DNA of 51,729 bases from Escherichia virus TH25: the sequence record MT446399.1, one strand, 5' to 3'. Of the stretch, positions 30,556 to 51,729 are shown piece after piece (the stretch's first letter is position 1; each line of letters starts with the position of its first letter). The position numbers and the translations under genes were made by a program. The notes beneath the pieces are model-generated. The model made no database searches and was not told the DNA's origin. It worked only from the letters and a program-made list of their open reading frames with translations.

Positions 30556-31419
30556 TCAGAAGGGCATTCCAGTACCGCCAGCAGCACCACCTTCCGCTTC
30601 ACGCTGTGCTTTCGCAGCAGCTTGAGCTTCCAGTTCGGCTTTCATTGCTGCATCAACTTCTTCATCAGAAGCCTGATTCGGAACAGAATCATCAGCAGGT
30701 TTACCGCCCAGCAGAGCAGACAGTTTGGTTTTGTAGAAGTCAACACCAGCAGTGATGCGGTTCTTGATTGCGTAAGGAGAATCGCCACCAGGCAGCTTGT
30801 TGAACACTTCTAAGTCTGGCTCAGACATGTCGAAGAATACAGTCGGGTTAACCAGAGCTTTGGCTTCTTTCTTCTCTTTGGACTTCATCGGGGAGAAGGT
30901 AGCAACCTTGTTCGCAACCTGGCCAGCGTTCTTGCCAGACTGCTTGGTGTATTGGACAATGCCAACAACCAGAGGTTCGCCCAACCAATCTGGCAGGTTC
31001 TTAGCAGGGTGGCCCTGAATAGCCTGTTCCAGATTTGGTTTAACTTCCAGAGCATCAATCGCTTTAGCGAATTTGTAGATGTGGGAGTTGTCACCCATGA
31101 AGCCATCAGCGTTGTAGGTAAACTCAAAGTCAAACCAACGCGGCTTGTCTTCAAGATTCTTCGCCATCATTACGCCGTCATCTTCGTCCGGGTCTTGGAC
31201 CATGACCATAGCACCATTGCCATCAACCTCTTTCATGTACTCGTCGAGCAGTTCGAAAGTAACCAGAAGTTTCAGGGATGGGTTTGGATATTTAGCAGAG
31301 CCTGGCTGTAAGCCCAGGTCGATAATACGGCAGACACGAGCAGGATAACCACCCGCTTCCAGTAATGGTGCAGCAGAAGGAGTCTTGTTCGAGGCCAGAG
31401 TAGGAGCAGCAAATGCCAT
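30556..31419 (-). CDS. Putative ssDNA-binding protein (T7 gp2.5-like architecture)
   Basis: 287 aa; acidic/Ala-rich C-terminal tail ending in Phe; between exonuclease and polymerase. Confidence 0.35.
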   Translation of the reverse strand: MAFAAPTLASNKTPSAAPLLEAGGYPARVCRIIDLGLQPGSAKYPNPSLKLLVTFELLDEYMKEVDGNGAMVMVQDPDEDDGVMMAKNLEDKPRWFDFEFTYNADGFMGDNSHIYKFAKAIDALEVKPNLEQAIQGHPAKNLPDWLGEPLVVGIVQYTKQSGKNAGQVANKVATFSPMKSKEKKEAKALVNPTVFFDMSEPDLEVFNKLPGGDSPYAIKNRITAGVDFYKTKLSALLGGKPADDSVPNQASDEEVDAAMKAELEAQAAAKAQREAEGGAAGGTGMPF

Positions 31420-31676: not shown

Positions 31677-33610
31677 TAGTGAATCTCCGCGTAGTTATCA
31701 CCGAACTGTACATCACATGCACAATCACGGTTAAGTTTAAGTTCTTTGTTGGTACGTTCCATTGCTTCATTAAGCAAGTCCGTCCACAAATCACGGAAAC
31801 CTTTCTTAACTTGGAGAATCAATTCATCGTGGAATTGTCCAGACAGAAGCGGGTCACAGCCCCAACGTTCGTTGCAAATTGCAATAATGTTGTTACACCA
31901 GATATCAAACACATATGCACCAGTACCCTGACACAGTGTTGAGAAGCGGTCTTTCTCTGTACGCAGAGAATACCAGAATTTGTTTACTGGATTCTGTTGC
32001 CACATCTGACCATCAACTGTGATGACTTTAGTGTTAGCAGCAATCTCTTTGATTGACCAGTTCAGGTCCCAATATGCTTTATGCAGACGTGCAGCCGTTG
32101 ATTGGTCACAGTCAGCAGAACGAGCAACAGTTGGAATACCAGCACCATACTGACAAGCATAGTTAGTGGTCTTAAACATTGGACGTTGCTTACATTTCTG
32201 TATGCCATCCTTGTGGTCCTGAGATTCTTTCTCAGTGATGAACCCGCCGATTACGCCGATTGCAAGGTGAGCATCATAGTCTGGTGCCAACTGCTTCTTA
32301 ACATATTCAGGGTCATACATCCATTGGAAGTGGTGCTTACAGCGGTCTTCCAGTGAACACAAGTCCGAGCCTAGCTGTTCGTAATCTTCACGCCACGCTT
32401 CCAACATTGAACGCAGTTCTTCACCGCCAAATACACGAATAGAAGGGAGGTTAACAAGTTCGCGATGTTTAAGGCGTAAAGTATTGGTAAGGCCACCGCA
32501 TCTCGCAGTAAGGAATCCATCTTCATCGACGTCACGAAGGAAGCCGTTAACAACAGACAGACGGTGTTTATACACGCCCATCCCAATAAGATGTTGAATA
32601 CCGGAGTCGGGGTTTCTTTCTGCCAGCTTATGCAAGCTCGGACAAATTTCGGGATTACCATCTTCATCCTTAACCGTGATTTGAGGAATCTGGCGAGTTT
32701 CGCCTGTTTCTTTATTACGGTCAAACTTAAATGTTTCTGGAACCCAGCCAAGGCTGAATAACCAATCTTTGATTTGTACGTGAGAACCAGCGTTAGGTGC
32801 TTTATACCCTTTAAGAACCTTGATTCCCAGGTCGGGGTCTTTCCAATCCAAACCATTTGCATCACAAACAGCTTTCCACTTTATTCCAGTGGCAGACAAT
32901 TGGCCATTCATTTTGTGACATTTGGCAGGACGGGTTTTAATAACATACTCCGGAACACGAGGCATTGATGCTTCCAATGCATCCGTCTTCTCTTTAATCA
33001 TTGGTTCAAGTTTGGCTTTAAATGCCAGAGCTTTCTCAATGTTCAGCTTCCAGCGAGTACGTTGTTGAATAACTTGTTGACGAGCTTTGGTCATAAGGTA
33101 TTCAATAAAACGTCTAACTTCGCTAGGAGTTTTATAAATCTTGAGGAGTTGAATATACTGCTGTTCCCACAGCTTTAGCTGAATCTTACAGTCTTCCATC
33201 ACACGATGGTTATATTCTTCCTGAGTTTGATTTTCCCAATCATCAATGACTGGTTTCGGCACACCAAACTCTTCTCCATAACCTTCTAAGCCGTGCTTAA
33301 CACGACGAGGTTGCAGATACCAACTGATAAACAAAGTATCAATTAGTGTACATTTTGAAACGTCGTAACCCAAGAACTTCAATGCTTCAAAGTCAAAGGT
33401 TGCGCCGTTGTGCATAATTAGTGTTGGACCTGTGTCCAGAAAGTCTTGAATGGATTTTCGTTGTGTCCACTCAATTACAGTTTCTTCACGAGTCTGAACA
33501 TCAATGTATCCAATGTTGTGTAGACGTGGTGCAGCCTGTTTCTTCATCTGCTCCAACAGACCAGTTGTTTCAATGTCACTGGCATACATATTTTCCCAAG
33601 GATACAACAC
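31676..33610 (-). CDS. DNA polymerase, family A, with 3'-5' exonuclease domain
   Basis: 644 aa; Exo I motif SDIETTGL near N-terminus and Pol I palm motifs (YGAGIPTVA). Confidence 0.85.
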   Translation of the reverse strand: MLYPWENMYASDIETTGLLEQMKKQAAPRLHNIGYIDVQTREETVIEWTQRKSIQDFLDTGPTLIMHNGATFDFEALKFLGYDVSKCTLIDTLFISWYLQPRRVKHGLEGYGEEFGVPKPVIDDWENQTQEEYNHRVMEDCKIQLKLWEQQYIQLLKIYKTPSEVRRFIEYLMTKARQQVIQQRTRWKLNIEKALAFKAKLEPMIKEKTDALEASMPRVPEYVIKTRPAKCHKMNGQLSATGIKWKAVCDANGLDWKDPDLGIKVLKGYKAPNAGSHVQIKDWLFSLGWVPETFKFDRNKETGETRQIPQITVKDEDGNPEICPSLHKLAERNPDSGIQHLIGMGVYKHRLSVVNGFLRDVDEDGFLTARCGGLTNTLRLKHRELVNLPSIRVFGGEELRSMLEAWREDYEQLGSDLCSLEDRCKHHFQWMYDPEYVKKQLAPDYDAHLAIGVIGGFITEKESQDHKDGIQKCKQRPMFKTTNYACQYGAGIPTVARSADCDQSTAARLHKAYWDLNWSIKEIAANTKVITVDGQMWQQNPVNKFWYSLRTEKDRFSTLCQGTGAYVFDIWCNNIIAICNERWGCDPLLSGQFHDELILQVKKGFRDLWTDLLNEAMERTNKELKLNRDCACDVQFGDNYAEIH

Positions 33611-33675: not shown

Positions 33676-35439
33676 TTATTGGTGAGGACCGTTCTTCTTA
33701 GTAAGTTGAACAATCTCTTTGGTTTCGAACAGTGAATCTTCCCAAGAACGTTGAATGATTCGACCAGAGTCTGAGTCATAATACGTCTTGAAGCCTTCTG
33801 TCTTACCACTCTTACGAGCTTTGATGGAACGAATGATTGAGCAGTTTGGGTCTACTGCCTGACTATTACGCTCAAAGCCAAACATGCCATGAGAATATTT
33901 AGCAGCAGCACGAGAACCAGTAAAGTCTGACTTCTTGATTCGTCCACCATCTTCATGAGGTCGCTGACCTTTTGCCACAGGGTTGAGGTGCGACAAGATA
34001 TTGACGTGGAACTGGTATTGGTCTGCCAGCTTAGTAATGTCTGCATACAGCTTGCCTAAGAAGTCGTTCTTCTCTGAGGCAGAAATCCCTTCCGATAAGT
34101 AGGTTAAGTTATCAAGAACAAACATATCAATGTCTGGACCAATCTGACGAAGAATCGTCTTTAACCCATCCCAAGTTTCATAAGGGTCTTCTCCAGCTTG
34201 CTTGCGGTCCCAAATCTCCATGTTACGAAGCATCTTCGCAGCAGTTTGACGGAACTTCGCTTCATCGTATCGAGGGTCTTCACGAGTAAACGCAGGTTCC
34301 CAATACGGCAAGTTGTCATTAAGGCCAGCCATACGTCGTAATGTTTCCGCAGGAGTTTCCTCCATGTATGCAGTAAACACTCCCCAATCGTGCTGGATAA
34401 TGTTGTGATGCACAATCTGTCGAGATAGTGTAGTTTTACCACCACCTTCTGCACCACCGATTGATATAACTTCGGCACGACGCTGACCAAACATTAAGTC
34501 GGTTAGCTTGGGCCAAGGATAGTCCACACCCTGTTCAACTTCGTCATCAAGTTCTTCCATAAGAAGTTCTTTATTGACAAGAGCTGTAGGCAGAGGGCGA
34601 GCAGCGCGGAATACAACAGCAGATTGAGTAGCTTTCAACAAGCCACGTTTCAAACAGTCGTTGGCATCGTTGGCAGGAAGTGTGGCAATCATTGCACCAG
34701 GCAACAAACGACATGCTTCCTTTGCAGCTTTACGCCCAGGTTCATCATCATCAAATACGATAACAACCTGTTCCCAACGTTGCTTGATTTCTTCTGCAAC
34801 TGGTGACAAACATTTGTGTACGGAATCGCTTCCATCACTCAAACTAATTACAGCAAAATCCAAATCTTCATATGCACCACCACGGTTCATAGTTTTGAGG
34901 ATTTGACGCAATGCGATACAGTCTTCTTCACCTTCTGTGATGAACAGTGTCTTACCGCCGATAGCTTTTGCAGCCATCCAGTTATATGGGTCGTTGCCCT
35001 GGGTATCACCAACAGACCACATAACTTTCTTGTTCAGAAGTTTAATCTTCCAGCGAACAAGTTTGCCATTCTTGGTGTATCCATGTGCCAAAGCATTTGG
35101 AGTCTTGCCATCAAACTCTGAATAGAGTAGGCGAACACCAGCAGCTTTCCAGAACTCAGGTTCAATACTGCGATGGTCTAAATCAAATGGAGGGCACGAG
35201 GTTATTTCGTCAATTTCTTCCTGAATTTCTTCTGGAGTCTTGACTTTAATTTCCGGAATATTCTCCGGATTATTGCCATACGGATTCGGAACGAGAACGC
35301 CACATGCAAAGCAGTAACCAGAGAAGTTCTTATTACCAGCTTCATCGACATTCAACCAAACCTGTAAAGACTTGCCAGATGTGGATTTACAGTCTGGTAC
35401 ATCGTGCTTAATCTTGGCAACACATTGCTTGACGTTCAT
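33676..35439 (-). CDS. Primase-helicase (T7 gp4-like)
   Basis: 587 aa; N-terminal Cys zinc finger (CFACGV), TOPRIM region, DnaB-type helicase Walker A (GGAEGGGKTT). Confidence 0.85.
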   Translation of the reverse strand: MNVKQCVAKIKHDVPDCKSTSGKSLQVWLNVDEAGNKNFSGYCFACGVLVPNPYGNNPENIPEIKVKTPEEIQEEIDEITSCPPFDLDHRSIEPEFWKAAGVRLLYSEFDGKTPNALAHGYTKNGKLVRWKIKLLNKKVMWSVGDTQGNDPYNWMAAKAIGGKTLFITEGEEDCIALRQILKTMNRGGAYEDLDFAVISLSDGSDSVHKCLSPVAEEIKQRWEQVVIVFDDDEPGRKAAKEACRLLPGAMIATLPANDANDCLKRGLLKATQSAVVFRAARPLPTALVNKELLMEELDDEVEQGVDYPWPKLTDLMFGQRRAEVISIGGAEGGGKTTLSRQIVHHNIIQHDWGVFTAYMEETPAETLRRMAGLNDNLPYWEPAFTREDPRYDEAKFRQTAAKMLRNMEIWDRKQAGEDPYETWDGLKTILRQIGPDIDMFVLDNLTYLSEGISASEKNDFLGKLYADITKLADQYQFHVNILSHLNPVAKGQRPHEDGGRIKKSDFTGSRAAAKYSHGMFGFERNSQAVDPNCSIIRSIKARKSGKTEGFKTYYDSDSGRIIQRSWEDSLFETKEIVQLTKKNGPHQ

Positions 35440-39001: not shown

Positions 39002-39079
39002 TTGTATATACCTTATATTAAATAGTTTTGCACGCCACGGTGACGTGACTTAGATAAAATTAAAGAGCCTTTCTCTTTT

Positions 39080-39094
39080 CACATCCAATTAATG
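39080..39094 (-). promoter_or_regulatory. Recurrent motif copy (+ strand CACATCCAATTAATG)
   Basis: One of 10 same-orientation copies of a 15-bp motif; 79 bp upstream of start at 39001. Confidence 0.35.
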
Positions 39095-39124
39095 TGTCAG
39101 GACTGCTCTGATTTAACAAACAAC

Positions 39125-39799
39125 TCAATACATATTGAATCGTTCGATTGTTTTGATTACCAAATCCTTTGTCTCATCGACAGTGAGTTCAGTGATGATT
39201 GATTCGTCATAACCCTCAATCTGGATTGCTACAAAACGCCCAACACCTGTTACGGTAAGTCGGTTAGTTCTGTCACGAACAACTACACCAGCTTCTTGCG
39301 CGACTGCTCGCAACAATTTCCAGCGTAAAGTTCGGTTTGGTACAGCAAAGCCCTTTGTCAAGAACAACTCTTTCATGAGTTCCCCGAGGCAAACAGCTTC
39401 AATGTTTTGTCCTCTTCCAACTAATTCTTGCAACAGGCACAGTGTCAACATTTCTAAATTGTTGAAGTGACCAGCGCGCTCCAAATTAAAGAACTCTGGA
39501 GGAACAGTTGAACGGGATTTAACAGCTTGCTTATATGCACGTTCTTCTTCCTGTGCAGCAAGCATTAGCATCTCTGGCTTGATATATTTCATAGCAGAGA
39601 AGCCAGCGCGTGTGGCTTTAATTATGCGACAAGCCTCTTTCATCTTGTAGCGTTGCCACTCACCGCGCTTCGATTCTGGATTAAAATGGACCCACATAAT
39701 GATAACATCTTCCTTGGCAAGATAGACGGCATCATTATCATTGAGCCATTGCTTGCACGTTGATAGTGCAATCTCTTTGTCATCATCATGATAAGACAT
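39125..39799 (-). CDS. Hypothetical protein
   Basis: Track ORF 39125..39856; ATG at 39799 follows upstream stop by 1 nt. Confidence 0.4.
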   Translation of the reverse strand: MSYHDDDKEIALSTCKQWLNDNDAVYLAKEDVIIMWVHFNPESKRGEWQRYKMKEACRIIKATRAGFSAMKYIKPEMLMLAAQEEERAYKQAVKSRSTVPPEFFNLERAGHFNNLEMLTLCLLQELVGRGQNIEAVCLGELMKELFLTKGFAVPNRTLRWKLLRAVAQEAGVVVRDRTNRLTVTGVGRFVAIQIEGYDESIITELTVDETKDLVIKTIERFNMY

Positions 39800-39800
39800 T

Positions 39801-40091
39801 TTAGTGGCCTTGTAGGATACGTTTGTTCGCAGTTTCTGCGTCGATTCCCAAATCAACTAATGTAACCAAGCACTGCGAAATCCGCTCTTGCGCAGCTTTC
39901 TCCAGAATTTGGTATTTTTCGTCGTTAACGCCTAACACATTCTTGGCATGAATGAGTGTAGCCATTAGGCCATGACCCAAAGCAACAGCTTGCATTGCCT
40001 GGAGTTCAAAGTTGATTGTGATGCCAGCGAGTTCGTGCTCCTTCTGGATAATCTCAATCAACTCTTCTTTGGATTTATCTTGCAAGTTCAA
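39801..40091 (-). CDS. Hypothetical protein
   Basis: 96-aa ORF, ATGA overlap with upstream gene. Confidence 0.35.
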   Translation of the reverse strand: MNLQDKSKEELIEIIQKEHELAGITINFELQAMQAVALGHGLMATLIHAKNVLGVNDEKYQILEKAAQERISQCLVTLVDLGIDAETANKRILQGH

Positions 40092-40408
40092 AATGGAACT
40101 CCGTAAATTGGTTGGTTAGTTGTCCATTCGCGAGTTGCGATTTGCATGGACTTGTTTGGTCCGTGGTAGAAGTATTTCTTAACTTCCTCAAGTGTATATT
40201 TAGCACTGCTTCCTAGTATGTCTTTGAAGGTGTGCTTCCAGAACCCATCTTTCTCCGAAATTCCTACGGTAAAGTCGTTGGTTCCGTTGTACCACCAACG
40301 TCCACCAATCAAAACGAAGTGGATTGTTTCTTCCTCACCTTCCCCACTTAGAACGGACGTTAGTACATTTCTTAATGTCAAAACTTTAGCAGAATGCTTG
40401 CGAATCAT
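40088..40408 (-). CDS. Hypothetical protein
   Basis: 106-aa ORF; GGAG 10 nt upstream of ATG. Confidence 0.4.
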   Translation of the reverse strand: MIRKHSAKVLTLRNVLTSVLSGEGEEETIHFVLIGGRWWYNGTNDFTVGISEKDGFWKHTFKDILGSSAKYTLEEVKKYFYHGPNKSMQIATREWTTNQPIYGVPF

Positions 40409-41046
40409 AGGAACTCTCCAATTTTCGATTCAGTGTTTGTGACTTCTCTTCTCATCTTTTGGCCCATGAAACAGGCCACAGGGTTGCGAAAATAGCCCTA
40501 TTTTAGGACTATAGCCAACCGTTTGTGTCAATTCTGGATAACTGCATTGGTGAAGGGTTACTCCCGTTAGGGTGCGGTACGCTAATCACATGAGTGTTGT
40601 CGCCTTACGGCTCAGGCGTGTCACAGAGGCTTTATAACCCTTCCCAATACATTCACCCAAATCCCAGCGTTGGCGTAGCTGGTGGCTTGGTTTTGTGCGG
40701 ATTATGCCACTCTAAGCCCTGTTTGTCCGACTTCCTCGGAGCACCAGCGGCTTGTGGCACAAACCTATTTTCGAATGACTAACATAAGCATGAGGCACAA
40801 CCCTCTAATTATTCAGCCCTAACAGCTTGCTTATTTAGTACCAATTCAACCCAATACATACACAACTATATACAATAGCGAACTATCTGCGAAAACTATC
40901 CGGCCCTATGGCCTAAGTTAAAGTTAATAGTGTGTGATGGAAACATTCCATCGAAAATAACTTTGTAGAATGAGTCGAACATTCTCGCACGTTATCGGCC
41001 GTAACGGTCTACCGAGTTACAAAGTTATTATCTGATGTTGTTTCTT

Positions 41047-41061
41047 CAATTCCAACTAATG
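41047..41061 (-). promoter_or_regulatory. Recurrent motif copy (+ strand CAATTCCAACTAATG)
   Basis: 15-bp motif family member in ORF-free region. Confidence 0.3.
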
Positions 41062-41181
41062 CCAATCTGTGCGACACACTCAGTCCAAGTTGTCCAGACT
41101 TGGTTGCTTAGGTCTGTGCTTATTGCAGTGGACTTCCTAGCAATTACTAATGACTAAGTATGTCGTCAGATTGACACTATT

Positions 41182-41196
41182 CAATTCCAACTAATG
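41182..41196 (-). promoter_or_regulatory. Recurrent motif copy (+ strand CAATTCCAACTAATG)
   Basis: 15-bp motif family member; followed by identical GTTTCAGA as the 41324 copy. Confidence 0.3.
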
Positions 41197-41267
41197 TTTC
41201 AGAATTATTCCAATATTCCAAACAAAAAAGAATAATAAGAATAAAATTAAATAAATGAAGAAAGTGC

Positions 41268-41297
41268 TTGACACCCATTTGGCGATAGGTGTATAAT
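41268..41297 (+). promoter_or_regulatory. Sigma70-type promoter candidate on the plus strand (TTGACA-18 bp-TATAAT with AT-rich upstream element)
   Basis: Consensus -35 at 41268-41273 and consensus -10 at 41292-41297, preceded by about 45 bp of A/T-rich sequence; oriented opposite to all genes. Confidence 0.4.
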
Positions 41298-41323
41298 GCC
41301 TTTCTTCCCTAAGAGGTCAGAAT

Positions 41324-41338
41324 CAAATCCCACTAATG
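41324..41338 (-). promoter_or_regulatory. Recurrent motif copy (+ strand CAAATCCCACTAATG)
   Basis: 15-bp motif family member. Confidence 0.3.
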
Positions 41339-41408
41339 TTTCAGACTAAAGCCGAAGGCCAATGCGAGCACAAAACCCGCTTGGCACTTCGAAGAAACCC
41401 GCCTGGAA

Positions 41409-41648
41409 CTATAGTGTTTTCCAATCTGAGTCAAATAACTCTTTCGGTCGTGTGTAGATAGTAGAAGAATCAATGCTCAAGAACGTATGATTCCCGTACT
41501 TCTTCACTTCTTGATAAGCAAACCCATCTACCCAACTTCCGCAGTGAGTTTTAATCTTTGTAGGCCCAAGAATACGATAGAAAGTGTTACGAGGCTGGTG
41601 GTGAACAATCAGTCCAGCCTCAAGTTCAGCAATATTTAAATCACGCAT
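41409..41648 (-). CDS. Hypothetical protein
   Basis: 79-aa ORF. Confidence 0.35.
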   Translation of the reverse strand: MRDLNIAELEAGLIVHHQPRNTFYRILGPTKIKTHCGSWVDGFAYQEVKKYGNHTFLSIDSSTIYTRPKELFDSDWKTL

Positions 41649-42189
41649 TTAAGAACAATACTCCTTCGGAGAAGATGTAGTCGCTGCCGTAATCTTTGAC
41701 GATTGCATCCCAATCAATATATGGACGAAGATGGTCTGGAACTTCTATACCATCATATTGTTTGAAGTAGTCTGCAATTGAATCACAACGAGTAATAAAC
41801 ATGTCATTCAAACTGTCGACGGTGAAAATATCAATCTCGCCACTACGGAATGCTGCAAGAATTACAAACAAATCAGTGTCATTTAAAAGCTCATTGAATT
41901 TGTCATACTTGCGTAGGCTGAATAGGCCATCAACAAAGCAAACTTCTGTAACATCCTCATCTCTTGATTCGAGAATGTCGTAAGTCCCTGTTTCTGGGTA
42001 CTCGATGCCATATTCTTCGTGTAAATATTCTGACATGTTGAAGTCATATAGCCGCCATGCCAGGCCATCAATCCAAGCATCTTCATGCTCGGAATTGTTT
42101 TCGCCTGTGTAGAAACGAACCAGTAAGGTTTCATCTCTACGCCAGGACTTAAGCTGTTCTACTGCTTGAGTAATGTTATCGTTTTGCAT
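41641..42189 (-). CDS. Strongly acidic early protein (DNA-mimic candidate)
   Basis: 182 aa with roughly 40 Asp/Glu versus about 13 Lys/Arg by eye; early-region position. Confidence 0.4.
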   Translation of the reverse strand: MQNDNITQAVEQLKSWRRDETLLVRFYTGENNSEHEDAWIDGLAWRLYDFNMSEYLHEEYGIEYPETGTYDILESRDEDVTEVCFVDGLFSLRKYDKFNELLNDTDLFVILAAFRSGEIDIFTVDSLNDMFITRCDSIADYFKQYDGIEVPDHLRPYIDWDAIVKDYGSDYIFSEGVLFLNA

Positions 42190-42466
42190 TGAGTTTCTCC
42201 CAAGTACCTTTCAATTCTGTGTCCAAAATTTTAAGCTGATTGATTCGCTCATTTCCACCTTTGATAAGTGCACTGAGGATAGCAGCCTTCTCGTTGTAAC
42301 TGACAGTGTAGACTACATCGTCAAGTTCCATAGTGTACTGCATCCTCTTCTCATCACCTACGTTAATTGATAGGTGCTGGTGGAGAATATTCTCTGCACG
42401 GATGGTTCTTGCCTCCAGTGCATTCAACTCTCTTGGGATATCTTCGTAATTCATCGGATGCTCCAT
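42176..42466 (-). CDS. Hypothetical protein
   Basis: 96-aa ORF. Confidence 0.35.
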   Translation of the reverse strand: MEHPMNYEDIPRELNALEARTIRAENILHQHLSINVGDEKRMQYTMELDDVVYTVSYNEKAAILSALIKGGNERINQLKILDTELKGTWEKLNAKR

Positions 42467-42474
42467 TGATGAAG

Positions 42475-42888
42475 TTATGCTGGAAGTTCGAAGTGCGGCA
42501 TATCAATCAGCTTCTTCTTACCTGGTGCAAGTGGTGGATACGGCTGATTTTCATCAATACGGCTCCAGTTCCCACCCCAACGAATGGTAATTCCAAGCTC
42601 TTTTGCAGCTTTGAACATATGATGAGCTAAAACTTTAAATCGTTCGAGGTCATTCCAGTCAATTGGATATGGCGCAATGTCCAAAGCGTTGCCTGACATG
42701 TGTCGGCTTACTGAAACTTTGGTTGCACCTTGCTTTAACAGCTCTTGTTGACGTTCATAAGAGCGTAAACCTTCCAGAACAGTTACATCAAAAGGCATGG
42801 TTTCACACGCCCGTTTGAAAACTGCAACTAATGAAGGATTTACTCCCTTAAGTCGGTCTAAAGAACGTTGACCGAGCTTAACATTCAT
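42475..42888 (-). CDS. Peptidase M15 family (L-alanyl-D-glutamate / D-Ala-D-Ala peptidase-like)
   Basis: 137 aa; zinc-ligand blocks SRHMSGNALD and DMPHFE. Confidence 0.65.
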   Translation of the reverse strand: MNVKLGQRSLDRLKGVNPSLVAVFKRACETMPFDVTVLEGLRSYERQQELLKQGATKVSVSRHMSGNALDIAPYPIDWNDLERFKVLAHHMFKAAKELGITIRWGGNWSRIDENQPYPPLAPGKKKLIDMPHFELPA

Positions 42889-43163
42889 TATTTGCCCTTT
42901 AACGCATCGTTTAAAGTGTTGTTTAGCAGTGTGTTGAGGTTATCAAGTTCATCAAATGCTGCCTGAGCCTTGGTAACTTCATCAACAAGTAATGCTCGAA
43001 GAACTGCATGCTCAACAAGCACCCATCCGTCGATACAGTCGATGAAAACTTTAACTTTATCAACTGGAGCATTTAAATCAAAGGCAGATAAGTCGGATTT
43101 GGCATTGTCCAACTTTCCTTTTGCCTTACTTAGTTCAACAGGAACTTGGTCTATCGAAATCAT
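42888..43163 (-). CDS. Hypothetical protein
   Basis: 91-aa ORF, start overlaps upstream stop. Confidence 0.35.
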   Translation of the reverse strand: MISIDQVPVELSKAKGKLDNAKSDLSAFDLNAPVDKVKVFIDCIDGWVLVEHAVLRALLVDEVTKAQAAFDELDNLNTLLNNTLNDALKGK

Positions 43164-43387
43164 TGAAAATTATTTCCACTAGGGTGAATGGTTAATTTAA
43201 AAGATACAGACTCCCGATTGATTTCGGTTGTTCCTTCCACGAGGGCCGTAGACAGAATTACTGCACCTTTCCCTGCTCGCTCCAAGAATTTGATTACTCG
43301 GTCGCGAAGTACTGGCCAGTGACGATATTCGCAACTGGATTCAAGTAAGTATGATATCCCATCAATGGTAAATTCAGATGACGTCAT
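43160..43387 (-). CDS. Hypothetical protein
   Basis: 75-aa ORF. Confidence 0.3.
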   Translation of the reverse strand: MTSSEFTIDGISYLLESSCEYRHWPVLRDRVIKFLERAGKGAVILSTALVEGTTEINRESVSFKLTIHPSGNNFQ

Positions 43388-43734
43388 TTAACTTCCTTAC
43401 AATAGGTTGATAACAATGGAAATTTGGCATGAAAGAAGTCAATGTCACGATAAATCTGTAGCACCAAACGTTCCTCAGCGTCAACACCAACTAAGGCCAG
43501 CTTACTGCTCTGTGTATTATAGAACACTGTTGACATTGGGTTAGGATTCCCGTTATCTGGAATCTCAATCCAAGTACCTTCGTGCAAAGAAATTGTTGCA
43601 ATGAGTGGCTGGCTCATTGTAATTGTTTCAACGGACATTTTGTATCCGCCACACTGGAAGCTGCGAACAGATGCTTCTGATTTGAATGCGAATACCCCAA
43701 ACAAAATTGTGAGTGCAATGTATAAAGTTTTCAT
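43384..43734 (-). CDS. Secreted/periplasmic protein, function unknown
   Basis: 116 aa with N-terminal signal peptide MKTLYIALTILFGVFAFKSEA. Confidence 0.4.
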   Translation of the reverse strand: MKTLYIALTILFGVFAFKSEASVRSFQCGGYKMSVETITMSQPLIATISLHEGTWIEIPDNGNPNPMSTVFYNTQSSKLALVGVDAEERLVLQIYRDIDFFHAKFPLLSTYCKEVK

Positions 43735-43789
43735 GAATGCTCCAGTGATAATTAATCGAGGCCACTCGAAGTGGAATGACCTCTGTTAA

Positions 43790-44713
43790 TTACAGCTTCT
43801 TGATAAGCTCTGCTGATTTGCTTGCAGCAACTTTCATTTCATCACGTGCGGCTTTAGTGATTGATGCCTTGTCCACGCGAATGTTGCAGTTGCCGATTGC
43901 AATCTTGCCATCTGCTGTTGGTGCAAGTTGCTGTAAGTCCAGCATTTGCTCCAGCTTTTGCAGAAGAATACGCTGTGCTTCGATTGCATTTTGGATATTT
44001 AAAGTTTCCATTACTGCTCTTACCTTTCTCGAATAAGTTCCAGTTAATACCAGACGTACTTGCAAACCTTTTACGTCGCCGTAGTCAACATTGACTTTAT
44101 TGTATGGTGAGTTTGGGTGCTTGTACACATTTGTAACAGTTGCCCAATTACCCTTAAACCAGATAACATCACCAACTTCCACATCAGCGCCTTTAACATC
44201 CTCTTCATCTGAGAATGGTTTCACTGCTTCCTCATAAGGAAGAAATACCGGTGTTATCTGCGTATTGTATGTTGCTGTTGGAGTTCCCAAAGCTGGTAGC
44301 TCGTTAACAATGTGGACTATGCGGTTAAGTGAAAAGTCAAAGTAGCCTGTTTCATGAATTAAGCGAACCGCCCTTTCTGGAATTTCCCCAAGGTCTTTAA
44401 CTTCCCTTATCTTAAAGAATTTGATTCCGTAAGATAAAGTGTTTCCGGGTCGCACTTGGTGTGCCAACACTGCGCGTGTTGAGGTCGGTTTTGCAAAAGA
44501 ACCTTTTGTAGGAAGTGGCCTGTCCAATATTTTGACTATACGGCCTAATTCAAAATTGAAGTATCCACCAGAATATTGTAGCTGAACTACATCACTGAGT
44601 CTGTTGATGTGAACAATCAGATACTCTTTATCTCCATGAAATACAACGTCGCCAGTTTTGACCAAGTTGGCAGGTATTTCAACAATTTTAGTCCCCATTA
44701 TGGTATTCCTCAC
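43790..44713 (-). CDS. Hypothetical protein with internal tandem repeat
   Basis: 307 aa; GYFNFELGRIVKI and GYFDFSLNRIVHI repeated about 90 aa apart. Confidence 0.4.
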   Translation of the reverse strand: MRNTIMGTKIVEIPANLVKTGDVVFHGDKEYLIVHINRLSDVVQLQYSGGYFNFELGRIVKILDRPLPTKGSFAKPTSTRAVLAHQVRPGNTLSYGIKFFKIREVKDLGEIPERAVRLIHETGYFDFSLNRIVHIVNELPALGTPTATYNTQITPVFLPYEEAVKPFSDEEDVKGADVEVGDVIWFKGNWATVTNVYKHPNSPYNKVNVDYGDVKGLQVRLVLTGTYSRKVRAVMETLNIQNAIEAQRILLQKLEQMLDLQQLAPTADGKIAIGNCNIRVDKASITKAARDEMKVAASKSAELIKKL

Positions 44714-44823
44714 GCATTGCTGAACAGTGCTTACACACCCAAAAGGTTACATAATCGTTTTCATGTGAAATCTCCCAATTATGTAGCCCTATAAAACATA
44801 AAATTTTCATAGGGCATCTCCAA

Positions 44824-45201
44824 TTAGAATGGAATGTCGTCGTCGAAGTCTTTCGGCTCGTCCGGATTGTAGTTGCTGTTCTGCGTCTGTTGCTGAACAG
44901 GTGCTTGCTGTTGTGCAGAAGGTTGCTGGCGTTGCTGTTGCTGTTGAGCGGCAGCTTGAGGTTGAGCTTTGGCTTTAGCCTTCTCTTCACGCTTACGCAT
45001 CATTTCATCGACTTGTTCTTGGGTCATGATGGTGAGTGCCAGCGAGGTAAATTCATTACCATTGGCTTGCTTGTTCCAACCGGACACCCAATACCAGATT
45101 CCGTCAACGTTAATACGTCCACGAACGTCAGGATGTTTTGGGTCTTTCTTGAAGCCATTGGAACCGATGATGCCAGTATTTACGTCTGAATATTGTGCCA
45201 T
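44824..45201 (-). CDS. SSB-like small protein with bacterial-SSB C-terminal tip (DFDDDIPF)
   Basis: 125 aa; Gln-rich linker then C-terminal PKDFDDDIPF matching the E. coli SSB acidic tip. Confidence 0.55.
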   Translation of the reverse strand: MAQYSDVNTGIIGSNGFKKDPKHPDVRGRINVDGIWYWVSGWNKQANGNEFTSLALTIMTQEQVDEMMRKREEKAKAKAQPQAAAQQQQQRQQPSAQQQAPVQQQTQNSNYNPDEPKDFDDDIPF

Positions 45202-45274
45202 GATTAAGATTCTCTTAAGTTAATTACAGTTTAAGTTTCAGTGACATTGCTAACCACGGAATAGCTTTGTCTCT

Positions 45275-45289
45275 CACATCCAACTAATG
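45275..45289 (-). promoter_or_regulatory. Recurrent motif copy (+ strand CACATCCAACTAATG)
   Basis: Consensus copy 74 bp upstream of start at 45201. Confidence 0.35.
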
Positions 45290-45329
45290 TTAGATTAATC
45301 AGGAACACTCAATGAATGCCCTTGTTAAT

Positions 45330-45530
45330 TTAACAGGATTTACAATCGTTTATAAACTTTCTACGCAATTTGCGCACTTGCTTTTTAGTGGGCTTTGCCG
45401 GAAAGAATTTGCACTCGATGTTATGCCAAAATGGGTTGTCATCCACTTCAACAAACCACAAAGTCCACCCAGCAGGAACTCCAGTAGGACTGTAACTTTT
45501 GTGGCTATACAAATGTGTATCTACAATCAT
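45330..45530 (-). CDS. Hypothetical protein
   Basis: 66-aa ORF. Confidence 0.3.
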   Translation of the reverse strand: MIVDTHLYSHKSYSPTGVPAGWTLWFVEVDDNPFWHNIECKFFPAKPTKKQVRKLRRKFINDCKSC

Positions 45531-45817
45531 TACATCACCTTTGAAACAGGAATCGGGTCGATGTTTGATTCAGGTTTATACCAACTTACTTCACCTGAAT
45601 CTTTCACAAGCTCCCACAGATTGGAGAATGTACGATAAGATAAATTGCGGTTATCATCATTAACGACAAAACCCAAAGGAGATTGAATATACGCACCGAG
45701 TGTACCATTGTTGCGAGGAACTCCGTCACCACGACCTGCGACGATTTTGTACTTCTTGCCTTTGGTAAAGCTGGAATTAGTTTCACCAACATACTTAACG
45801 ATTGAATTCTTGTTCAT
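45530..45817 (-). CDS. Hypothetical protein
   Basis: 95-aa ORF, 1-nt overlap coupling. Confidence 0.35.
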   Translation of the reverse strand: MNKNSIVKYVGETNSSFTKGKKYKIVAGRGDGVPRNNGTLGAYIQSPLGFVVNDDNRNLSYRTFSNLWELVKDSGEVSWYKPESNIDPIPVSKVM

Positions 45818-46101
45818 TTCTTAATTTTCTCCCATTTAGACAAACCACCCTCAAGACTGAATACGCGGTTACAACCAGATTCATCTTTAATGACAAATTG
45901 AGTTCCTGTCAGTTGAACTGGCTCAAGCGAACCAAACAACACTTTAGGTTTTGACAAGCTGGTGGCAAGAACCACATAAACTTTGCTTGGGCAAATATCA
46001 AAAGCAAAGTCACGAGTGTAAACTAAGTCACCAACTTTCAAATATGCTGGCAACAGGCGACCTGTGGCTGGGTCACGTTGTAAACGAGTACGTTGTTTCA
46101 T
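45814..46101 (-). CDS. Hypothetical protein
   Basis: 95-aa ORF, ATGA coupling. Confidence 0.35.
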   Translation of the reverse strand: MKQRTRLQRDPATGRLLPAYLKVGDLVYTRDFAFDICPSKVYVVLATSLSKPKVLFGSLEPVQLTGTQFVIKDESGCNRVFSLEGGLSKWEKIKK

Positions 46102-46164
46102 AAATGCTCCAAGTTAATTAATAATATTCAGCAACCACTCTCATTATAAGAATGGTTGAGGAAA

Positions 46165-46332
46165 TTATTTGACCTCTTCCCAAGACCAGATGCTGCCTTT
46201 TAACGGAATGCTTTCACCAACACTCCAGTAAGGTTTTCCATCAACATCCTTGTGGTCACTATCTTTCAAAAGGTTTATGCGAGCTTCCACACCATATTCC
46301 CTCTGAACATGTACAAGTTCTCCCTCAAGCAC
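46165..46332 (-). CDS. Hypothetical protein, probable GTG start
   Basis: Open frame of 69 codons without ATG; GTG at 46332 lies 3 nt before the stop of a 23-codon upstream ORF (ATG 46396). Confidence 0.25.
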   Translation of the reverse strand: MLEGELVHVQREYGVEARINLLKDSDHKDVDGKPYWSVGESIPLKGSIWSWEEVK

Positions 46333-46392
46333 GACACCAACTTGCGGAGAATACTTCCCAGAAGATGTTGATTTTTACACATTTAAACTTTG

Positions 46393-46620
46393 TCATTGCA
46401 ATACACCTTGTTCACAAATGTCTGCAAATTCTATACGATGGTCACGCTGCCATGTCCAGAATGCACCATTCATAGGAACGACAGCACCTTTACGAAATGC
46501 TGGAGAAATACTCTCAGCAGATTTGGTTACTTTAAATTCCAAAGGCGAAATAGCTTCACCTTCAATGATTAAGCCAACTGGAACGTAGTCTTTGTTGGAA
46601 GCAACACATTTAAATTTCAT
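46393..46620 (-). CDS. Hypothetical protein
   Basis: 75-aa ORF. Confidence 0.35.
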   Translation of the reverse strand: MKFKCVASNKDYVPVGLIIEGEAISPLEFKVTKSAESISPAFRKGAVVPMNGAFWTWQRDHRIEFADICEQGVLQ

Positions 46621-46873
46621 GGTATAAAACTCCTAATTCAGATTCTAATTTAAATTCACGGAAGAAATCCATTGTTACAAATCGGACTTTACCTTCGTCA
46701 TCAACTACGTTACAGGAAATGTCGGAGTGGACCATCCTGCCTAGCTTCAAAGCAACTTCTGAAAGATTCGCTTCGCCAGTCCCTGAGATTACACGGTAGA
46801 TGCGATATGGTGTAAAGCCGCTTAAAGAGTTATTACGGCTTGGGACAATCATCATGCCTGTTCTAGTAGCCAT
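46610..46873 (-). CDS. Hypothetical protein
   Basis: Track ORF 46610..46924; ATG at 46873 has GGAG 7 nt upstream. Confidence 0.35.
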   Translation of the reverse strand: MATRTGMMIVPSRNNSLSGFTPYRIYRVISGTGEANLSEVALKLGRMVHSDISCNVVDDEGKVRFVTMDFFREFKLESELGVLYHEI

Positions 46874-46886
46874 AATAACTCCAATA

Positions 46887-46970
46887 TTAAAAGTACATGA
46901 ATGCGCCAATAGTAAGTAGCACAAGTGGAAACATCAGAATACAGAATACTAATTTCTTTACGATATCCAT
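46887..46970 (-). CDS. Small hydrophobic peptide (27 aa, single TM helix)
   Basis: MDIVKKLVFCILMFPLVLLTIGAFMYF; TAATG overlap with upstream ORF; too short for the track. Confidence 0.25.
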   Translation of the reverse strand: MDIVKKLVFCILMFPLVLLTIGAFMYF

Positions 46971-47143
46971 TATTTCACCAGGAAGTAGAGAACAAGGGCA
47001 ACACCGACACATGCAATGATTGTTGGCATATAATTATCAATTTTACGATATTTACGTTCGACTGGCTTCTTGCCTTCGATGGCATTCATCAGTTCTTGAT
47101 GATTAATCTGCTGCATGAATGTGTTGAATTGCTGGTCGTTCAT
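46970..47143 (-). CDS. Small protein with C-terminal TM helix (57 aa)
   Basis: ATG at 47143 with GGAG 9 nt upstream; ends ...IIACVGVALVLYFLVK. Confidence 0.3.
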   Translation of the reverse strand: MNDQQFNTFMQQINHQELMNAIEGKKPVERKYRKIDNYMPTIIACVGVALVLYFLVK

Positions 47144-47308
47144 TTAATACTCCAGATATTCGTAAATTGATTTAACACGTCTTGCCACTTCACGAGCAGG
47201 CATACGTGGATTTGCTTCTTTAGCCATTTTCTTCAAACGTTTGTTTGAACTGCCGTAGGCAGCAGCGTAAACACAGGATTTAAAAGATTTGAAATGGGAT
47301 AATTTCAT
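47144..47308 (-). CDS. Small basic protein (54 aa)
   Basis: ATG at 47308 overlaps upstream stop (ATGA); stop TAA abuts next ATG. Confidence 0.25.
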   Translation of the reverse strand: MKLSHFKSFKSCVYAAAYGSSNKRLKKMAKEANPRMPAREVARRVKSIYEYLEY

Positions 47309-47493
47309 TTTGCCTCTAGAATTTGATTTAAAGAGCTGAACACGATTTCTTCATGTTCATCAGGTGTACATGCGTTGATGTAGTCAAAGTCATAACCAAC
47401 AAACTTCTCCGCCCACTGTTGCAAACGAAGTAAAGAATTGAAGTACAAACGTTGCTCTACACCATTTAACTTAAAGTAGACGATGAAGTCCAT
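47305..47493 (-). CDS. Hypothetical protein
   Basis: 62-aa ORF. Confidence 0.3.
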   Translation of the reverse strand: MDFIVYFKLNGVEQRLYFNSLLRLQQWAEKFVGYDFDYINACTPDEHEEIVFSSLNQILEAK

Positions 47494-47495
47494 GA

Positions 47496-47732
47496 TTAAC
47501 CTCGTGCTTTAATGAAGTGAGGGTGAGTAGCCATTGCCACAATTTTGTTGTGCTTGTCATTTTGAATTGCAAGCCAAACATATTCAGGGTGTGCAGCAGG
47601 TTTCCATACCAGACTTCCTCTTTCTCCATAAATCATCGTGTCAGCCAACATCACTGCCTTAGTTTTAATATTAACCAAGGCATGAGAAACAACACCATCA
47701 CGATTGATATATTGATACAGTGCGTAATCCAT
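47496..47732 (-). CDS. Hypothetical protein
   Basis: Track ORF 47496..47792; ATG at 47732 directly follows upstream stop. Confidence 0.3.
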   Translation of the reverse strand: MDYALYQYINRDGVVSHALVNIKTKAVMLADTMIYGERGSLVWKPAAHPEYVWLAIQNDKHNKIVAMATHPHFIKARG

Positions 47733-47733
47733 T

Positions 47734-47982
47734 TCAGAATCCTTTAGTGTACCCAACAGTTTTGCGCAGAATGATTTCATCATTTGAATCATCTGGCTCT
47801 AATTCGATTTCAATATTGACAACAATATTGTCGCTAAAAGTACATGCCTTACTTGAATCAAAGAACTTTACAGCATTATACTTATCTGACTCATTTACTT
47901 TAATCCACTTCACAGAACGAACAGTAAAGATTTGTCCATCTTGCAGGTCTTTAAAGTAAGCCGCTTTAGTAACAGTATCCAT
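47734..47982 (-). CDS. Hypothetical protein (first gene after repeat region)
   Basis: 82-aa ORF. Confidence 0.35.
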   Translation of the reverse strand: MDTVTKAAYFKDLQDGQIFTVRSVKWIKVNESDKYNAVKFFDSSKACTFSDNIVVNIEIELEPDDSNDEIILRKTVGYTKGF

Positions 47983-48268
47983 TTTTATTCTCCTAAGTTA
48001 AAAGAAAACTCCCGTCATAACGATTGTGGAGGTCTTGTGTTACCTTAATCCACCTTAAAGAATCAGGGAGTTACATATTAGTCTGTGTGTGCTGCTCTCG
48101 GTTACTTCCTAGTATTGCGAAGCTCTTGCACTCCCGCAAACCACACCTTTTGCACAGTCTATATGTGACACATTAAGTGCCGAAAACTACAATGATTAGC
48201 TTGGAGACATAATCTCTCTAAAATCTGTCACACAATTTCAGCAGAATTTACAGAGATTTGGTCTTATT

Positions 48269-48283
48269 CACATGCAACTAATG
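48269..48283 (-). promoter_or_regulatory. Recurrent motif copy (+ strand CACATGCAACTAATG)
   Basis: Motif family member about 290 bp upstream of gene start at 47982. Confidence 0.3.
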
Positions 48284-49183
48284 ATAAATGGACATGCTTA
48301 ATTGCAACCAATTCATCTGCCAAATAGACGAATTTAGTCACAATCAAACATGCTCATTAATTACAGGTTTGCTCCTATCTTGGAATGTATTTGGCACATC
48401 AAGAAGTGGCGCAATAGGTACGGAAAACCGACCATGTACAGCATAATAAAACTAATTAAATAAAGGGTTTTATCCCAATATTGTCACAATATTTACATGC
48501 GATGATAAAGCCTTCGCTTGGCTGGAAGCCAGTATTCATGCGGGTTGCAAGAATATTGGGTGAATATTGATACATTTATTACATGCGAAATTGGCACAAA
48601 TACTGTTACAAAATTAACATGCCGGATTGGTAGACAATTGTATCTTCGAGGTGATTAGTCCTCTAACAATTCTGCCACATTCTAACATGCCAATTTGTAG
48701 CAATATTTACATGCCATACTGTAGCAATATTGCCACAATATTTGTTGCTCAAAATCGGGGCGGCTTCTGCGTGAAAACGAGAGGCTTTGCTCCGACTCTT
48801 CTCTTCTTTCGAATTCTGATTGAAAGAAAGAAGCATGTCCAAAAGTTCCAGTCTTGCCAAAGTTATCTCCCGGCTTGTGGGTGGGCCTTGATAATAGGAG
48901 ATGGAGCAATATTGAAACAAGTGAACATGCTTAGGTTTGCTGACTTTCTTGTAACTTAATCAAGATGGCTAACACGATGTTCTGTTGTTAGTTCAGCACC
49001 GGAAGAACAGTTTCGAATGATAATCCTACTTCACACATGGTTGCTGGAACTTTGTCCGGCCAAAGACAGGGAGTTCAATGATTGCCACATCATTACAACG
49101 CTGTGTGTTTAGTTGACATGCTGAAATGTTTCTAGAATGATTTCAACATGACATGCGGAAGATTTCTCCGTATTCTGTTACTT

Positions 49184-49198
49184 CACATCCAACTAATG
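49184..49198 (-). promoter_or_regulatory. Recurrent motif copy (+ strand CACATCCAACTAATG)
   Basis: Consensus copy at right edge of repeat region. Confidence 0.3.
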
Positions 49199-49249
49199 TC
49201 GAATATCGGGACAATATCACATGCAGCAATATTGTCCGAATATTGGGAA

Positions 49250-49472: not shown

Positions 49473-51413
49473 TTACTGGCAGAAGTAGTAAGCGTGTTCG
49501 CTCATCAGAAGTTCTTCTGTTACGATGTTCTCATGGTACATGTTGATGCCACCAAGTTGCTTGGACAGAGATTCAAACTGATTATTGTGAACAAAGATTT
49601 CAACATAAGCAGAACGAATAACTTCCATCATTTTAGGAGCATCAGCTAAGCAGCAACGGAAACAATCGTGAATTGAAGTGAAACCACGAAGACCAGCTTC
49701 TTTAGCTTTGACTGCAACAGTACGAGCAACCAATGCGTCAATACCTTGAATGTAGTTAACAACGAAGGTACGCTTGAATTCTTCTTTAGTTGGATTGGAC
49801 TCACGAATGGTCCAAGGCTTATTCTCCTGAATCTGACCAAAGATGACACGAGTTTGAGAGTCAACACGAATGCTGAACGCATCACAAACATCACGAGATG
49901 GGAAGCAAGGCTTCATTACAACCTGACCATCAGTGTGCTTATAGGTGATGTACTCTTTGTTGAGTTCAACACAACGGTTGTATGCAGCATCAGCAGCTTT
50001 CTCGATGAACATGTTAATCTTAGCACCCAATGCATTATGGATTGCTTCTACACAAAGTTCAGCAAATGCTTCTGCTTTCTCCATAGGAATCTGGAGCGCT
50101 TCTGTCATGTATGCGATGAAGTCAGAAGAACCAGTTAATGCAGCTTTACCACCACCATATTGGATAGCCATGTATGGAGTTTTGATAAACTTACGACCAG
50201 CTTTCGGATTCAAGAATTCATCCATAATTTCAGCGGATGGTTTCATTGAAGAACGGTCAAGCAACTTCAACAGTTCACGAAGAGATAACTGGTATGGGTC
50301 AGATGCTTTAGTCTCAGAATCAACCAGACCTGTTGCACGAGCCATCTCCATGTTACCAGCAATGAATGCCAGATATTGAGTACCAGAACATTTAGCATCT
50401 AAGCCAAAGCCTACACGAGAATCACACTCACCTGTAGTCTCAAACTTGAACCAATCCAGAGCTAATCGAACATAAGTGAATGGCTTAGAAGGACGCTCAC
50501 CTTTAGGCATGTTCAGCATACGAGCCAAAGAACCAGCAGGATTCTGTGCAACATAAGTTAAACGTTTAGCAGAAGTCCAGTCTCCACCAGCAATATCTTC
50601 CAGCTCAAGCATGAACATGTTGTATGCCAGAGTTGTAGAACCATCAGCATTAAACTTGCTCACAGTGTTCTCAACATTGTGGGAATACAGGCAACGAGCA
50701 AAGTCAGATGATTGTGGGTTAGGACCAGCACACGCTACGTGATACAGACGACCACGGTTATCAGCAAAGTAGTCAGAGAACAGAGTGTCCTGACCAACCA
50801 TTGCTACAGCATTGTTCCAAACATGGAGTTCAGTCTGGATTGCTTCTGGCATCTGCAAGCCACCAAATGTACGTTGTTCTAACATGGAAGAGATAACCTT
50901 AACCATTGTTGCATCGACGTGATATTCAGTATCTTGCAGGAATTCGATTGCAGCTTTCAGAGTCTTGGATGGCTTAACTTTGCCACCTTTAACGAAAGGC
51001 TTGCGACGAGATTCAGTTGTTACCTTCTCAGTGAATGGAACTGAGGTATCTTTGGTTGTAACCAGTTCAACCCATGCGTCAGTCATCTGGAACGATTTGT
51101 CCTCGTTCATGGTGATGAAACCGAAGTGTTTAGCCAGACCAATCAGGTTGATAGCTGGGTCAACATAGTGCATTGATTTCAAGTCGTTGTTGTAACGGTT
51201 GGCATCAGCAATAGAAGCAGAAGCCAGTTCAACCATCGAGATAGCCGGAATAACGTCATCACGCGTGAAAGACGTCATCATCTTGAATATGGCTAAGGCA
51301 GCAATAGCACAAGTCTGGGGCTGCATATAGTTCTGCTTCTCTTTGGCACGATATACCAGAGCGGTGATAGCAGGAACAACAGATTTGATAGTTTGAGTAG
51401 TGATAGTAGTCAT
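49473..51413 (-). CDS. Single-subunit DNA-dependent RNA polymerase (T7-like, compact)
   Basis: Blocks matching T7 RNAP: DNRGRLYHV (DWRGRVYAV), LDAKCSGTQY (DGSCSGIQH, motif A), YMAIQYGGGK (MTLAYGSKE, motif B), TSIHDCF (LIHDSFG, motif C); ATG at 51413 has GGAG 9 nt upstream; 646 aa. Confidence 0.8.
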   Translation of the reverse strand: MTTITTQTIKSVVPAITALVYRAKEKQNYMQPQTCAIAALAIFKMMTSFTRDDVIPAISMVELASASIADANRYNNDLKSMHYVDPAINLIGLAKHFGFITMNEDKSFQMTDAWVELVTTKDTSVPFTEKVTTESRRKPFVKGGKVKPSKTLKAAIEFLQDTEYHVDATMVKVISSMLEQRTFGGLQMPEAIQTELHVWNNAVAMVGQDTLFSDYFADNRGRLYHVACAGPNPQSSDFARCLYSHNVENTVSKFNADGSTTLAYNMFMLELEDIAGGDWTSAKRLTYVAQNPAGSLARMLNMPKGERPSKPFTYVRLALDWFKFETTGECDSRVGFGLDAKCSGTQYLAFIAGNMEMARATGLVDSETKASDPYQLSLRELLKLLDRSSMKPSAEIMDEFLNPKAGRKFIKTPYMAIQYGGGKAALTGSSDFIAYMTEALQIPMEKAEAFAELCVEAIHNALGAKINMFIEKAADAAYNRCVELNKEYITYKHTDGQVVMKPCFPSRDVCDAFSIRVDSQTRVIFGQIQENKPWTIRESNPTKEEFKRTFVVNYIQGIDALVARTVAVKAKEAGLRGFTSIHDCFRCCLADAPKMMEVIRSAYVEIFVHNNQFESLSKQLGGINMYHENIVTEELLMSEHAYYFCQ

Positions 51414-51481
51414 TTGTAAGTCTCCAAGATTGTGTATGATTTGAATGAAACGGATTATAATAGCGTAGCCATTACACAATT

Positions 51482-51496
51482 CACGTCCAACTAATA
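51482..51496 (-). promoter_or_regulatory. Recurrent motif copy (+ strand CACGTCCAACTAATA)
   Basis: 69 bp upstream of RNAP ATG; a TATAAT hexamer (minus strand, 51454-51459) lies between motif and gene. Confidence 0.35.
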
Positions 51497-51729
51497 TCAC
51501 AAACCTGTGCCATTGTTAGCACAGCACGGAGACTTTGACCTTGACTCATAAGCGAAGCGCCTAACTTGGTGTTGTTTGAAAGCCGATAGGCTGTAGAAAA
51601 AGTTGGGGTAGGGACCGTATTTAAGTCCGATAGGACGTTGGGCTTCCCCTCCCCGCCACCTCAAAAATAAAAATAATATTGCCACAATTCTAGTCTCATT
51701 AATATTGAAACAATTTGAGTCTCATTAAT

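Follow-up and report, generated by a model that had tools for sequence, protein, structure and literature searches.

The C-terminal tip of bacterial SSB is bound by host enzymes that include Pol III chi, DnaG, PriA, RecQ, RecO, ExoI, Ung and others. Among phages, T7 gp2.5 is the SSB of the T7-like replisome; it has an OB-type fold and an acidic C-terminal tail that ends in Phe (…EADEDGDF) and serves for docking to the polymerase and helicase of the phage. A non-canonical phage SSB is that of HK620 (HkaK, Pfam DUF669), a distant homolog of N4 SSB whose C-terminal acidic tail (hexapeptide NDYPPF) is required to stimulate the partner protein Sak4 (PMC5928155). In phage T5, a PC4-like protein (PDB 4bg7) has been discussed as an ssDNA-binding factor of replication/recombination, and PC4-like proteins in general occur as type I and type II (PMC7549692).

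We analyzed a 51,729-nucleotide stretch of DNA from Escherichia virus TH25 (MT446399.1; the whole stretch is hereafter designated as the window), which encodes a 125-aa protein with an SSB-type C-terminus. Similar to bacterial SSB (PF00436, TIGR00621), this protein has a disordered, low-complexity linker that is followed by an acidic tip. Unlike bacterial SSB, it has an N-terminal domain of only ~60–80 aa (~112 aa in bacterial SSB) that is predicted to be non-OB and has no sequence similarity to the OB domain, and the protein is likely a dimer, whereas bacterial SSB is a tetramer. It shows no similarity to T7 gp2.5 (PHROG 7364 and 112, respectively; hhalign probability, 0.0), from whose OB-type fold its predicted fold differs, and no similarity to HK620 SSB, a member of another domain family (PHROG 743), was detected. 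We consider it probable that the 125-aa protein is the phage's own ssDNA-binding protein, in which a non-OB scaffold presents the docking peptide of host SSB. The annotation of the gene as SSB and the precedent of a PC4-like phage SSB in T5 are already known. However, the combination of a PC4-like (or new) β-meander with the linker and tip of bacterial SSB, in a large family that has no Pfam model, appears to be undescribed in the searchable literature, in which we found no paper describing the fold of the family.

Gene layout and the phage transcription unit

The ORF of the 125-aa protein (MAQYSDVNTGIIGSNGFKKDPKHPDVRGRINVDGIWYWVSGWNKQANGNEFTSLALTIMTQEQVDEMMRKREEKAKAKAQPQAAAQQQQQRQQPSAQQQAPVQQQTQNSNYNPDEPKDFDDDIPF) had been called in the first-pass annotation without a strand; it was confirmed here and lies on the minus strand (Table 1), as do all large ORFs of the window. 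Plus-strand ORFs overlapping this gene have Leu-rich products that mirror the CAG-rich linker codons; they were rejected as genes. The linker (69% Q+P+A) varies in length and sequence among homologs and is predicted to be disordered, with a pLDDT of <50 over residues 81–114 in our first AF2 model; the Gln-rich segment that had been noted earlier, QPQAAAQQQQQRQQPSAQQQAPVQQQTQ, corresponds to residues 80–107.

Table 1. Positions of the 125-aa SSB-like gene, its parts and other features of the window
Feature	Position	Strand	Remarks
CDS of the 125-aa SSB-like protein	44824..45201	−	ATG at 45201; stop codon, 44824-44826
Predicted four-strand antiparallel β-meander, aa 1-60	45022..45201	−	AF2 model (pLDDT 95.1) and conservation
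Predicted C-terminal α-helix of the domain, aa 61-79	44965..45021	−	Subfamily feature
Predicted disordered Gln/Pro/Ala-rich linker, aa 80-115	44857..44964	−	pLDDT, composition and alignment
Acidic tip PKDFDDDIPF, aa 116-125	44827..44856	−	tblastn with E. coli SSB
Phage single-subunit-RNAP promoter, phiEcoM-GJ1 type	45273..45291	−	AACATTAGTTGGATGTGAG; perfect copy
40-aa Cys-rich ORF, co-transcribed	44688..44810	−	MKILCFIGLHNWEISHENDYVTFWVCKHCSAMREEYHNGD; equivalent to SA91KD gp20
307-aa ORF, co-transcribed	43790..44713	−	PHROG 20048 (unknown function); equivalent to SA91KD gp21
Terminator-like hairpin at the end of the promoter–SSB–40-aa–307-aa unit	43758..43783	−	Terminator annotated at the same place in SA91KD
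Single-subunit RNA polymerase gene	49473-51500
Primase-helicase	33676-35439		T7-like replication module
Family-A DNA polymerase	31676-33610		T7-like replication module
287-aa ORF	30556..31419	−	Between DNA polymerase A and 5'-3' exonuclease; acidic tail ending in MPF

The gene is preceded by a phage promoter that exactly matches the phiEcoM-GJ1-type promoter shown at the corresponding position in the annotation of phage SA91KD. The first-pass annotation had also seen this motif copy and placed it 74 bp upstream; we measured 71 nt from the 3' end of the motif to the ATG, a trivial difference that results from bounding the motif differently. With up to three mismatches, the motif occurs six times in the window, always on the minus strand and within the early/middle region (39078–49200), where no copy is expected by chance, and the copy ahead of the SSB-like gene is the sole perfect match to the SA91KD 19-mer.

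The 40-aa ORF follows the SSB-like gene at a distance of 14 nt, is conserved as SA91KD gp20 and phiEcoM-GJ1 gp16, and has the pattern C-x4-H ... C-x2-C; its product may be a small zinc-binding protein. The match of the 307-aa ORF to its PHROG is limited to the C-terminal half. By eye, a small 'VKxGDVV...IVHI' β-module can be discerned three times in its N-terminal part.

The window is 87–94% identical to phiEcoM-GJ1-like coliphages (Chaseviridae, Carltongylesvirus). In addition to the polymerase and primase-helicase, the T7-like replication module includes ThyX, the 287-aa ORF, an endonuclease, a ligase and, at 29482-30555, a 5'-3' exonuclease. The SSB-like gene lies ~9 kb from this module, within its separate promoter-to-hairpin unit. 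A 53.7-kb record, PP952070.1, is designated as 'Staphylococcus phage Pel53' with Staphylococcus hyicus as host; its DNA identity of 90% to this family of phages, the E. coli and Yersinia Chaseviridae, suggests a mislabelled host or a contaminant.

The acidic tip and the origin of the SSB name

The SSB-type end PKDFDDDIPF that had been pointed out earlier was borne out: the last eight residues (DFDDDIPF) are identical to residues 171–178 of E. coli SSB. When E. coli SSB (a query sequence 100% identical to PDB 1eqq_A) was compared with the whole window by tblastn, the sole match was that of its last 10 residues to the tip (9/10 identical), and no canonical SSB or gp2.5 homolog was detectable elsewhere in the window. 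The 125-aa protein has 51 close homologs, on contigs of ~53 kb, among which D120, I123, P124 and F125 are invariant. In Klebsiella and Erwinia phage relatives, up to 12 tail residues (EPPMDFDDDIPF) are common with E. coli SSB.

GenBank records and PHROGs already name the gene SSB. The protein matches PHROG 7364 (E=1.7e-42) and PHROG 18154 (E=1.3e-16), both 'single strand DNA binding protein', a family name that represents annotation and not tested function; both are matched by all 94 superfamily members. No domain was found when the 125-aa protein was searched against Pfam. The NCBIfam SSB models scored below their curated cutoffs (PRK09010, 25.1 bits vs 260; TIGR00621, 22.3 vs 53.95) and matched only residues 40–125, from the last part of the domain through the linker to the tip. 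A sequence search of all PDB chains with the 125-aa protein and two family profiles yielded no relative; weak matches were confined to the SSB tail, the Shiga-toxin B subunit and regions of low complexity. Since no relative was found in Pfam or PDB and the NCBIfam matches are restricted to residues 40–125, the SSB name comes from the tail and not from the DNA-binding domain. This is of consequence for readers of phage genomes, in which the SSB label is routine and an OB fold tends to be assumed from it.

In several homologs (P0007, P0020, phiVC8 at L003:4001-4516, P0134, P0141, P0170 and P0078), of which P0007 and P0020 are close, the ORF runs 5–15 residues past IPF, as in ...DSDIPFAPIGLQEGRRYLHCI and ...DDDIPFMDTYHRQSKLGHCV, so that the tip would not be C-terminal there. 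Loss of a stop codon, a sequencing error or a regulated variant could account for these extensions.

Predicted fold of the N-terminal domain and its distribution

The first-pass annotation had proposed a fold prediction for an OB fold in aa 1–80, and the outcome went against such a fold. A first AF2 model, built from 26 close homologs, had a moderately confident core; a domain-only model built from a 99-sequence superfamily alignment reached a pLDDT of 95.1 and a pTM of 0.77. DSSP assigns to the predicted structure the elements β9–14, β26–32, β35–46, β49–58 and α61–79, which form a simple antiparallel meander of four strands plus a helix and not the five-strand Greek-key barrel of the OB fold. 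In a Foldseek search of BFVD, mostly unnamed phage proteins were retrieved, together with one DUF736 protein (rank 19, prob 0.97).

The β-β-β-β-α topology by which a PC4-like fold is recognized is present in the predicted model; judging from this model, the domain would belong to the fold class of PC4/Sub1, Pur-α, Whirly, YdbC and the T5 PC4-like SSB. The first, weaker model led to the same families. In hhalign comparisons, the 99-sequence domain profile aligned with the C-terminal domain of human PC4 (sequence 100% identical to 1pcf) with a probability of 62% (E=7.5e-5), and with an eight-sequence PC4 profile, which included two phage homologs, with a probability of 52% and a score of 26.1. 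Reversed profiles scored 10.8–12.8, the OB domain of E. coli SSB 11.3 and T7 gp2.5 7.4, while 100 column-shuffled PC4 profiles gave a mean of 9.3 ± 2.6 and a maximum of 16.2. These control scores are far below the PC4 score; at the level of sequence profiles, therefore, the local similarity of the domain to PC4 is above chance, with registers in sequence and in structure that disagree. The PC4 family itself (PF02229) gave no match to the 125-aa protein even when E-values of up to 10 were allowed, nor was it among the families that the 94 superfamily members matched at an E-value cutoff of 0.01. The T5 PC4-like protein differs from the phage SSB-like domain in having an extra helix (PMC7549692), and the phage PC4 homologs of Rhizobium TM39 and Vibrio 70E34-1a differ from the 125-aa protein in that they are devoid of an SSB-type linker or tip.

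To survey the family by its domain, we searched 1.84 billion proteins at E ≤ 0.001 with an N-domain profile that contained neither linker nor tip and obtained 2,033 cluster representatives (~2,000 clusters at 50% identity). The best 149 of these 2,033 representatives have a median length of 103 aa, and in the majority of the family the domain is followed by a disordered linker and DD(D/E)IPF: an [ILMV]PF end is present in 89 of these 149, preceded directly by two or more acidic residues in 87 of the 89, the commonest end is DDDIPF, and an aromatic tail of some kind is found in 113. About 14 of the approximately 150 best representatives contain at least two tandem copies of the domain, as does the phiVC8 homolog. 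Such copies fit a functional unit of two domains, as in the type I and type II PC4-like proteins (PMC7549692). Separately, a predicted protein of 1,158 aa (P0054) has 21 matches to the N-domain profile in a repeated unit of ~51 aa (…HTPGYWYSSW…); it probably represents either the translation of a tandem DNA repeat or an artefact.

Across the superfamily, only G28 and W42 are invariant; G10, N15, P24, G34, G48 and S53 are nearly so, and W36, Y37, W38 and F51 are also conserved in the domain. The C-terminal helix of the domain is kept by ~23 of the 94 superfamily members. The sole Pfam family touched is DUF736 (PF05284), matched by 4 of the 94 (best E=3.1e-4); this family has no known function, and its match to the 125-aa protein is below significance.

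The gene is carried by ~145 cultured phage genomes, all with proteobacterial hosts. A tblastn search of 72,556 plasmids with a central family member gave no match, and a scan of bacterial genomes, swamped by ssb genes, revealed three MAG loci. Homologs directly adjoin a DNA polymerase and a helicase in Vibrio phiVC8 (L003), Klebsiella VLCpiS6a (L004), Acinetobacter Bhz20 (L011) and Burkholderia Bm1 (L012). In the last three, a PurZ-type adenylosuccinate synthetase gene also adjoins the homolog, and dATPase-type genes are present in the Acinetobacter phage. PurZ-type gene clusters are associated with 2-aminoadenine genomes, and the family may include the SSB of the replication cluster of such phages. 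In phage C72C1, the gene immediately preceding the homolog encodes a Sak-like annealase. These polymerase/helicase and annealase neighborhoods argue for an ssDNA-related role in replication or recombination.

Possible roles of the 125-aa protein and of a second tailed protein

In the probable role as the phage's own SSB, the four-stranded meander formed by the N-terminal 60–80 residues, backed by the helix, would contact ssDNA through conserved tryptophans, a tyrosine and basic residues, probably as a dimer, and the Gln-rich disordered linker would present the C-terminal DFDDDIPF, a copy of the bacterial SSB tip. Because the tip is copied on the phage protein, ssDNA coated by this protein would still display the docking peptide to SSB-binding pockets. 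The tip may be read by host enzymes or by T7-like proteins of the phage itself, namely its polymerase, primase-helicase or exonuclease. If the N-terminal domain is indeed a PC4-like ssDNA module joined to an SSB docking peptide, it would represent a second non-OB solution to a phage SSB, after that of T5. The SSB tip would then be a transferable element, which phages fuse to unrelated DNA-binding proteins, and the 14-kDa protein would serve as a compact tool to ask which partners, of host or phage origin, read the tip. Given that the family is large (~2,000 clusters) and includes the SSB-like proteins of PurZ phages, one study of structure and binding would suffice to annotate many genomes.

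The first-pass annotation had suggested either a minimal SSB or a decoy, and this interpretation was partly supported: an SSB role is favored, but in a non-OB form, and the decoy is the less likely of the two. A minimal canonical SSB, with a small OB fold in the N-terminal 80 residues, would accord with the database annotation and the weak NCBIfam matches, but it is largely refuted by the present analysis and is highly improbable. As a decoy or hijacker, the protein would mainly use its tip to draw SSB-interacting proteins away from host SSB, thereby shutting down host replication and repair or diverting the enzymes to phage DNA, and DNA binding would be secondary. The host-identical tip is consistent with this role, as are the expression of the gene from its own strong phage promoter in an early/middle region that is separate from the genes of the replisome, a T7-like replisome that may not need host partners, and the second tail-bearing candidate SSB in the replication module. 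However, a decoy would need neither an N-terminal domain whose invariant aromatics are kept over ~2,000 clusters nor tandem-domain versions, and its relatives are located in replication or recombination modules. This conservation of the domain and these gene contexts disfavor a pure decoy, which we regard as unlikely; the decoy and SSB roles are not exclusive, and the former may apply particularly as a second role.

Two further explanations retain ssDNA binding and assign it to other processes. The protein could serve an annealing or recombination pathway and not fork replication, in the manner of HK620 SSB and Sak4, for which tail-dependent stimulation provides a precedent (PMC5928155). The position of the C72C1 homolog directly after a Sak-like annealase agrees with such a partnership, but no Sak, Erf or RecT is annotated beside the gene in TH25 and the polymerase-adjacent contexts constitute the majority of those examined, which makes it quite unlikely here. 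Alternatively, the protein might be a transcription cofactor that binds melted promoter DNA and assists the short single-subunit RNA polymerase of the phage, like eukaryotic PC4 or Drc of the N4-type RNA polymerases. The PC4-like fold class and the location of the gene in the early region, downstream of the RNA polymerase gene and not with the replication genes, point in this direction, and ssDNA-binding RNA polymerase cofactors have a precedent in N4-like phages (PMC7145618). Nevertheless, no role in cofactors of this kind is known for an SSB-type linker and tip, and the four neighborhoods examined adjoin DNA polymerases, with no phage RNA polymerase annotated within the 7–8 kb inspected; we therefore judge a cofactor role very unlikely.

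The first-pass annotation had also proposed a gp2.5-like SSB candidate in the replication module. The 287-aa ORF does exist there and has an acidic tail with a PF end, but the similarity to gp2.5 was not upheld (PHROG 862 vs 112; nothing by BLASTP; hhalign, 0.2%). An assignment as a DUF669-type SSB of the HK620 kind was likewise rejected for lack of similarity; DUF669 was touched by 1 of 32 homologs (E=0.0046), which is not enough. No match was found among PDB chains, with a profile search included. An SSB or annealase is a reasonable candidate function for this ORF, whose relatives have a phage promoter of their own. In a bolder and rather doubtful extension of the SSB reading, the 125-aa protein would represent a large non-OB class that has neither a Pfam model nor a solved relative, in which a β-meander of ~55 aa, PC4-like at best, has become linked, either in repeated events or in an ancient one, to the SSB linker and tip. 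In TH25, where a strong promoter of its own drives the gene at a distance from the replisome genes, the protein would take the place of host SSB on ssDNA and acquire its interactome, while the 287-aa protein would serve the replisome. Among 120 homologs of the 287-aa ORF, the ends that follow the acidic stretch are IPF (36), MPF (18), VPF (9) and other xPF/xPY/xW forms, from which it follows that the phage encodes two proteins with SSB-style C-terminal tips.
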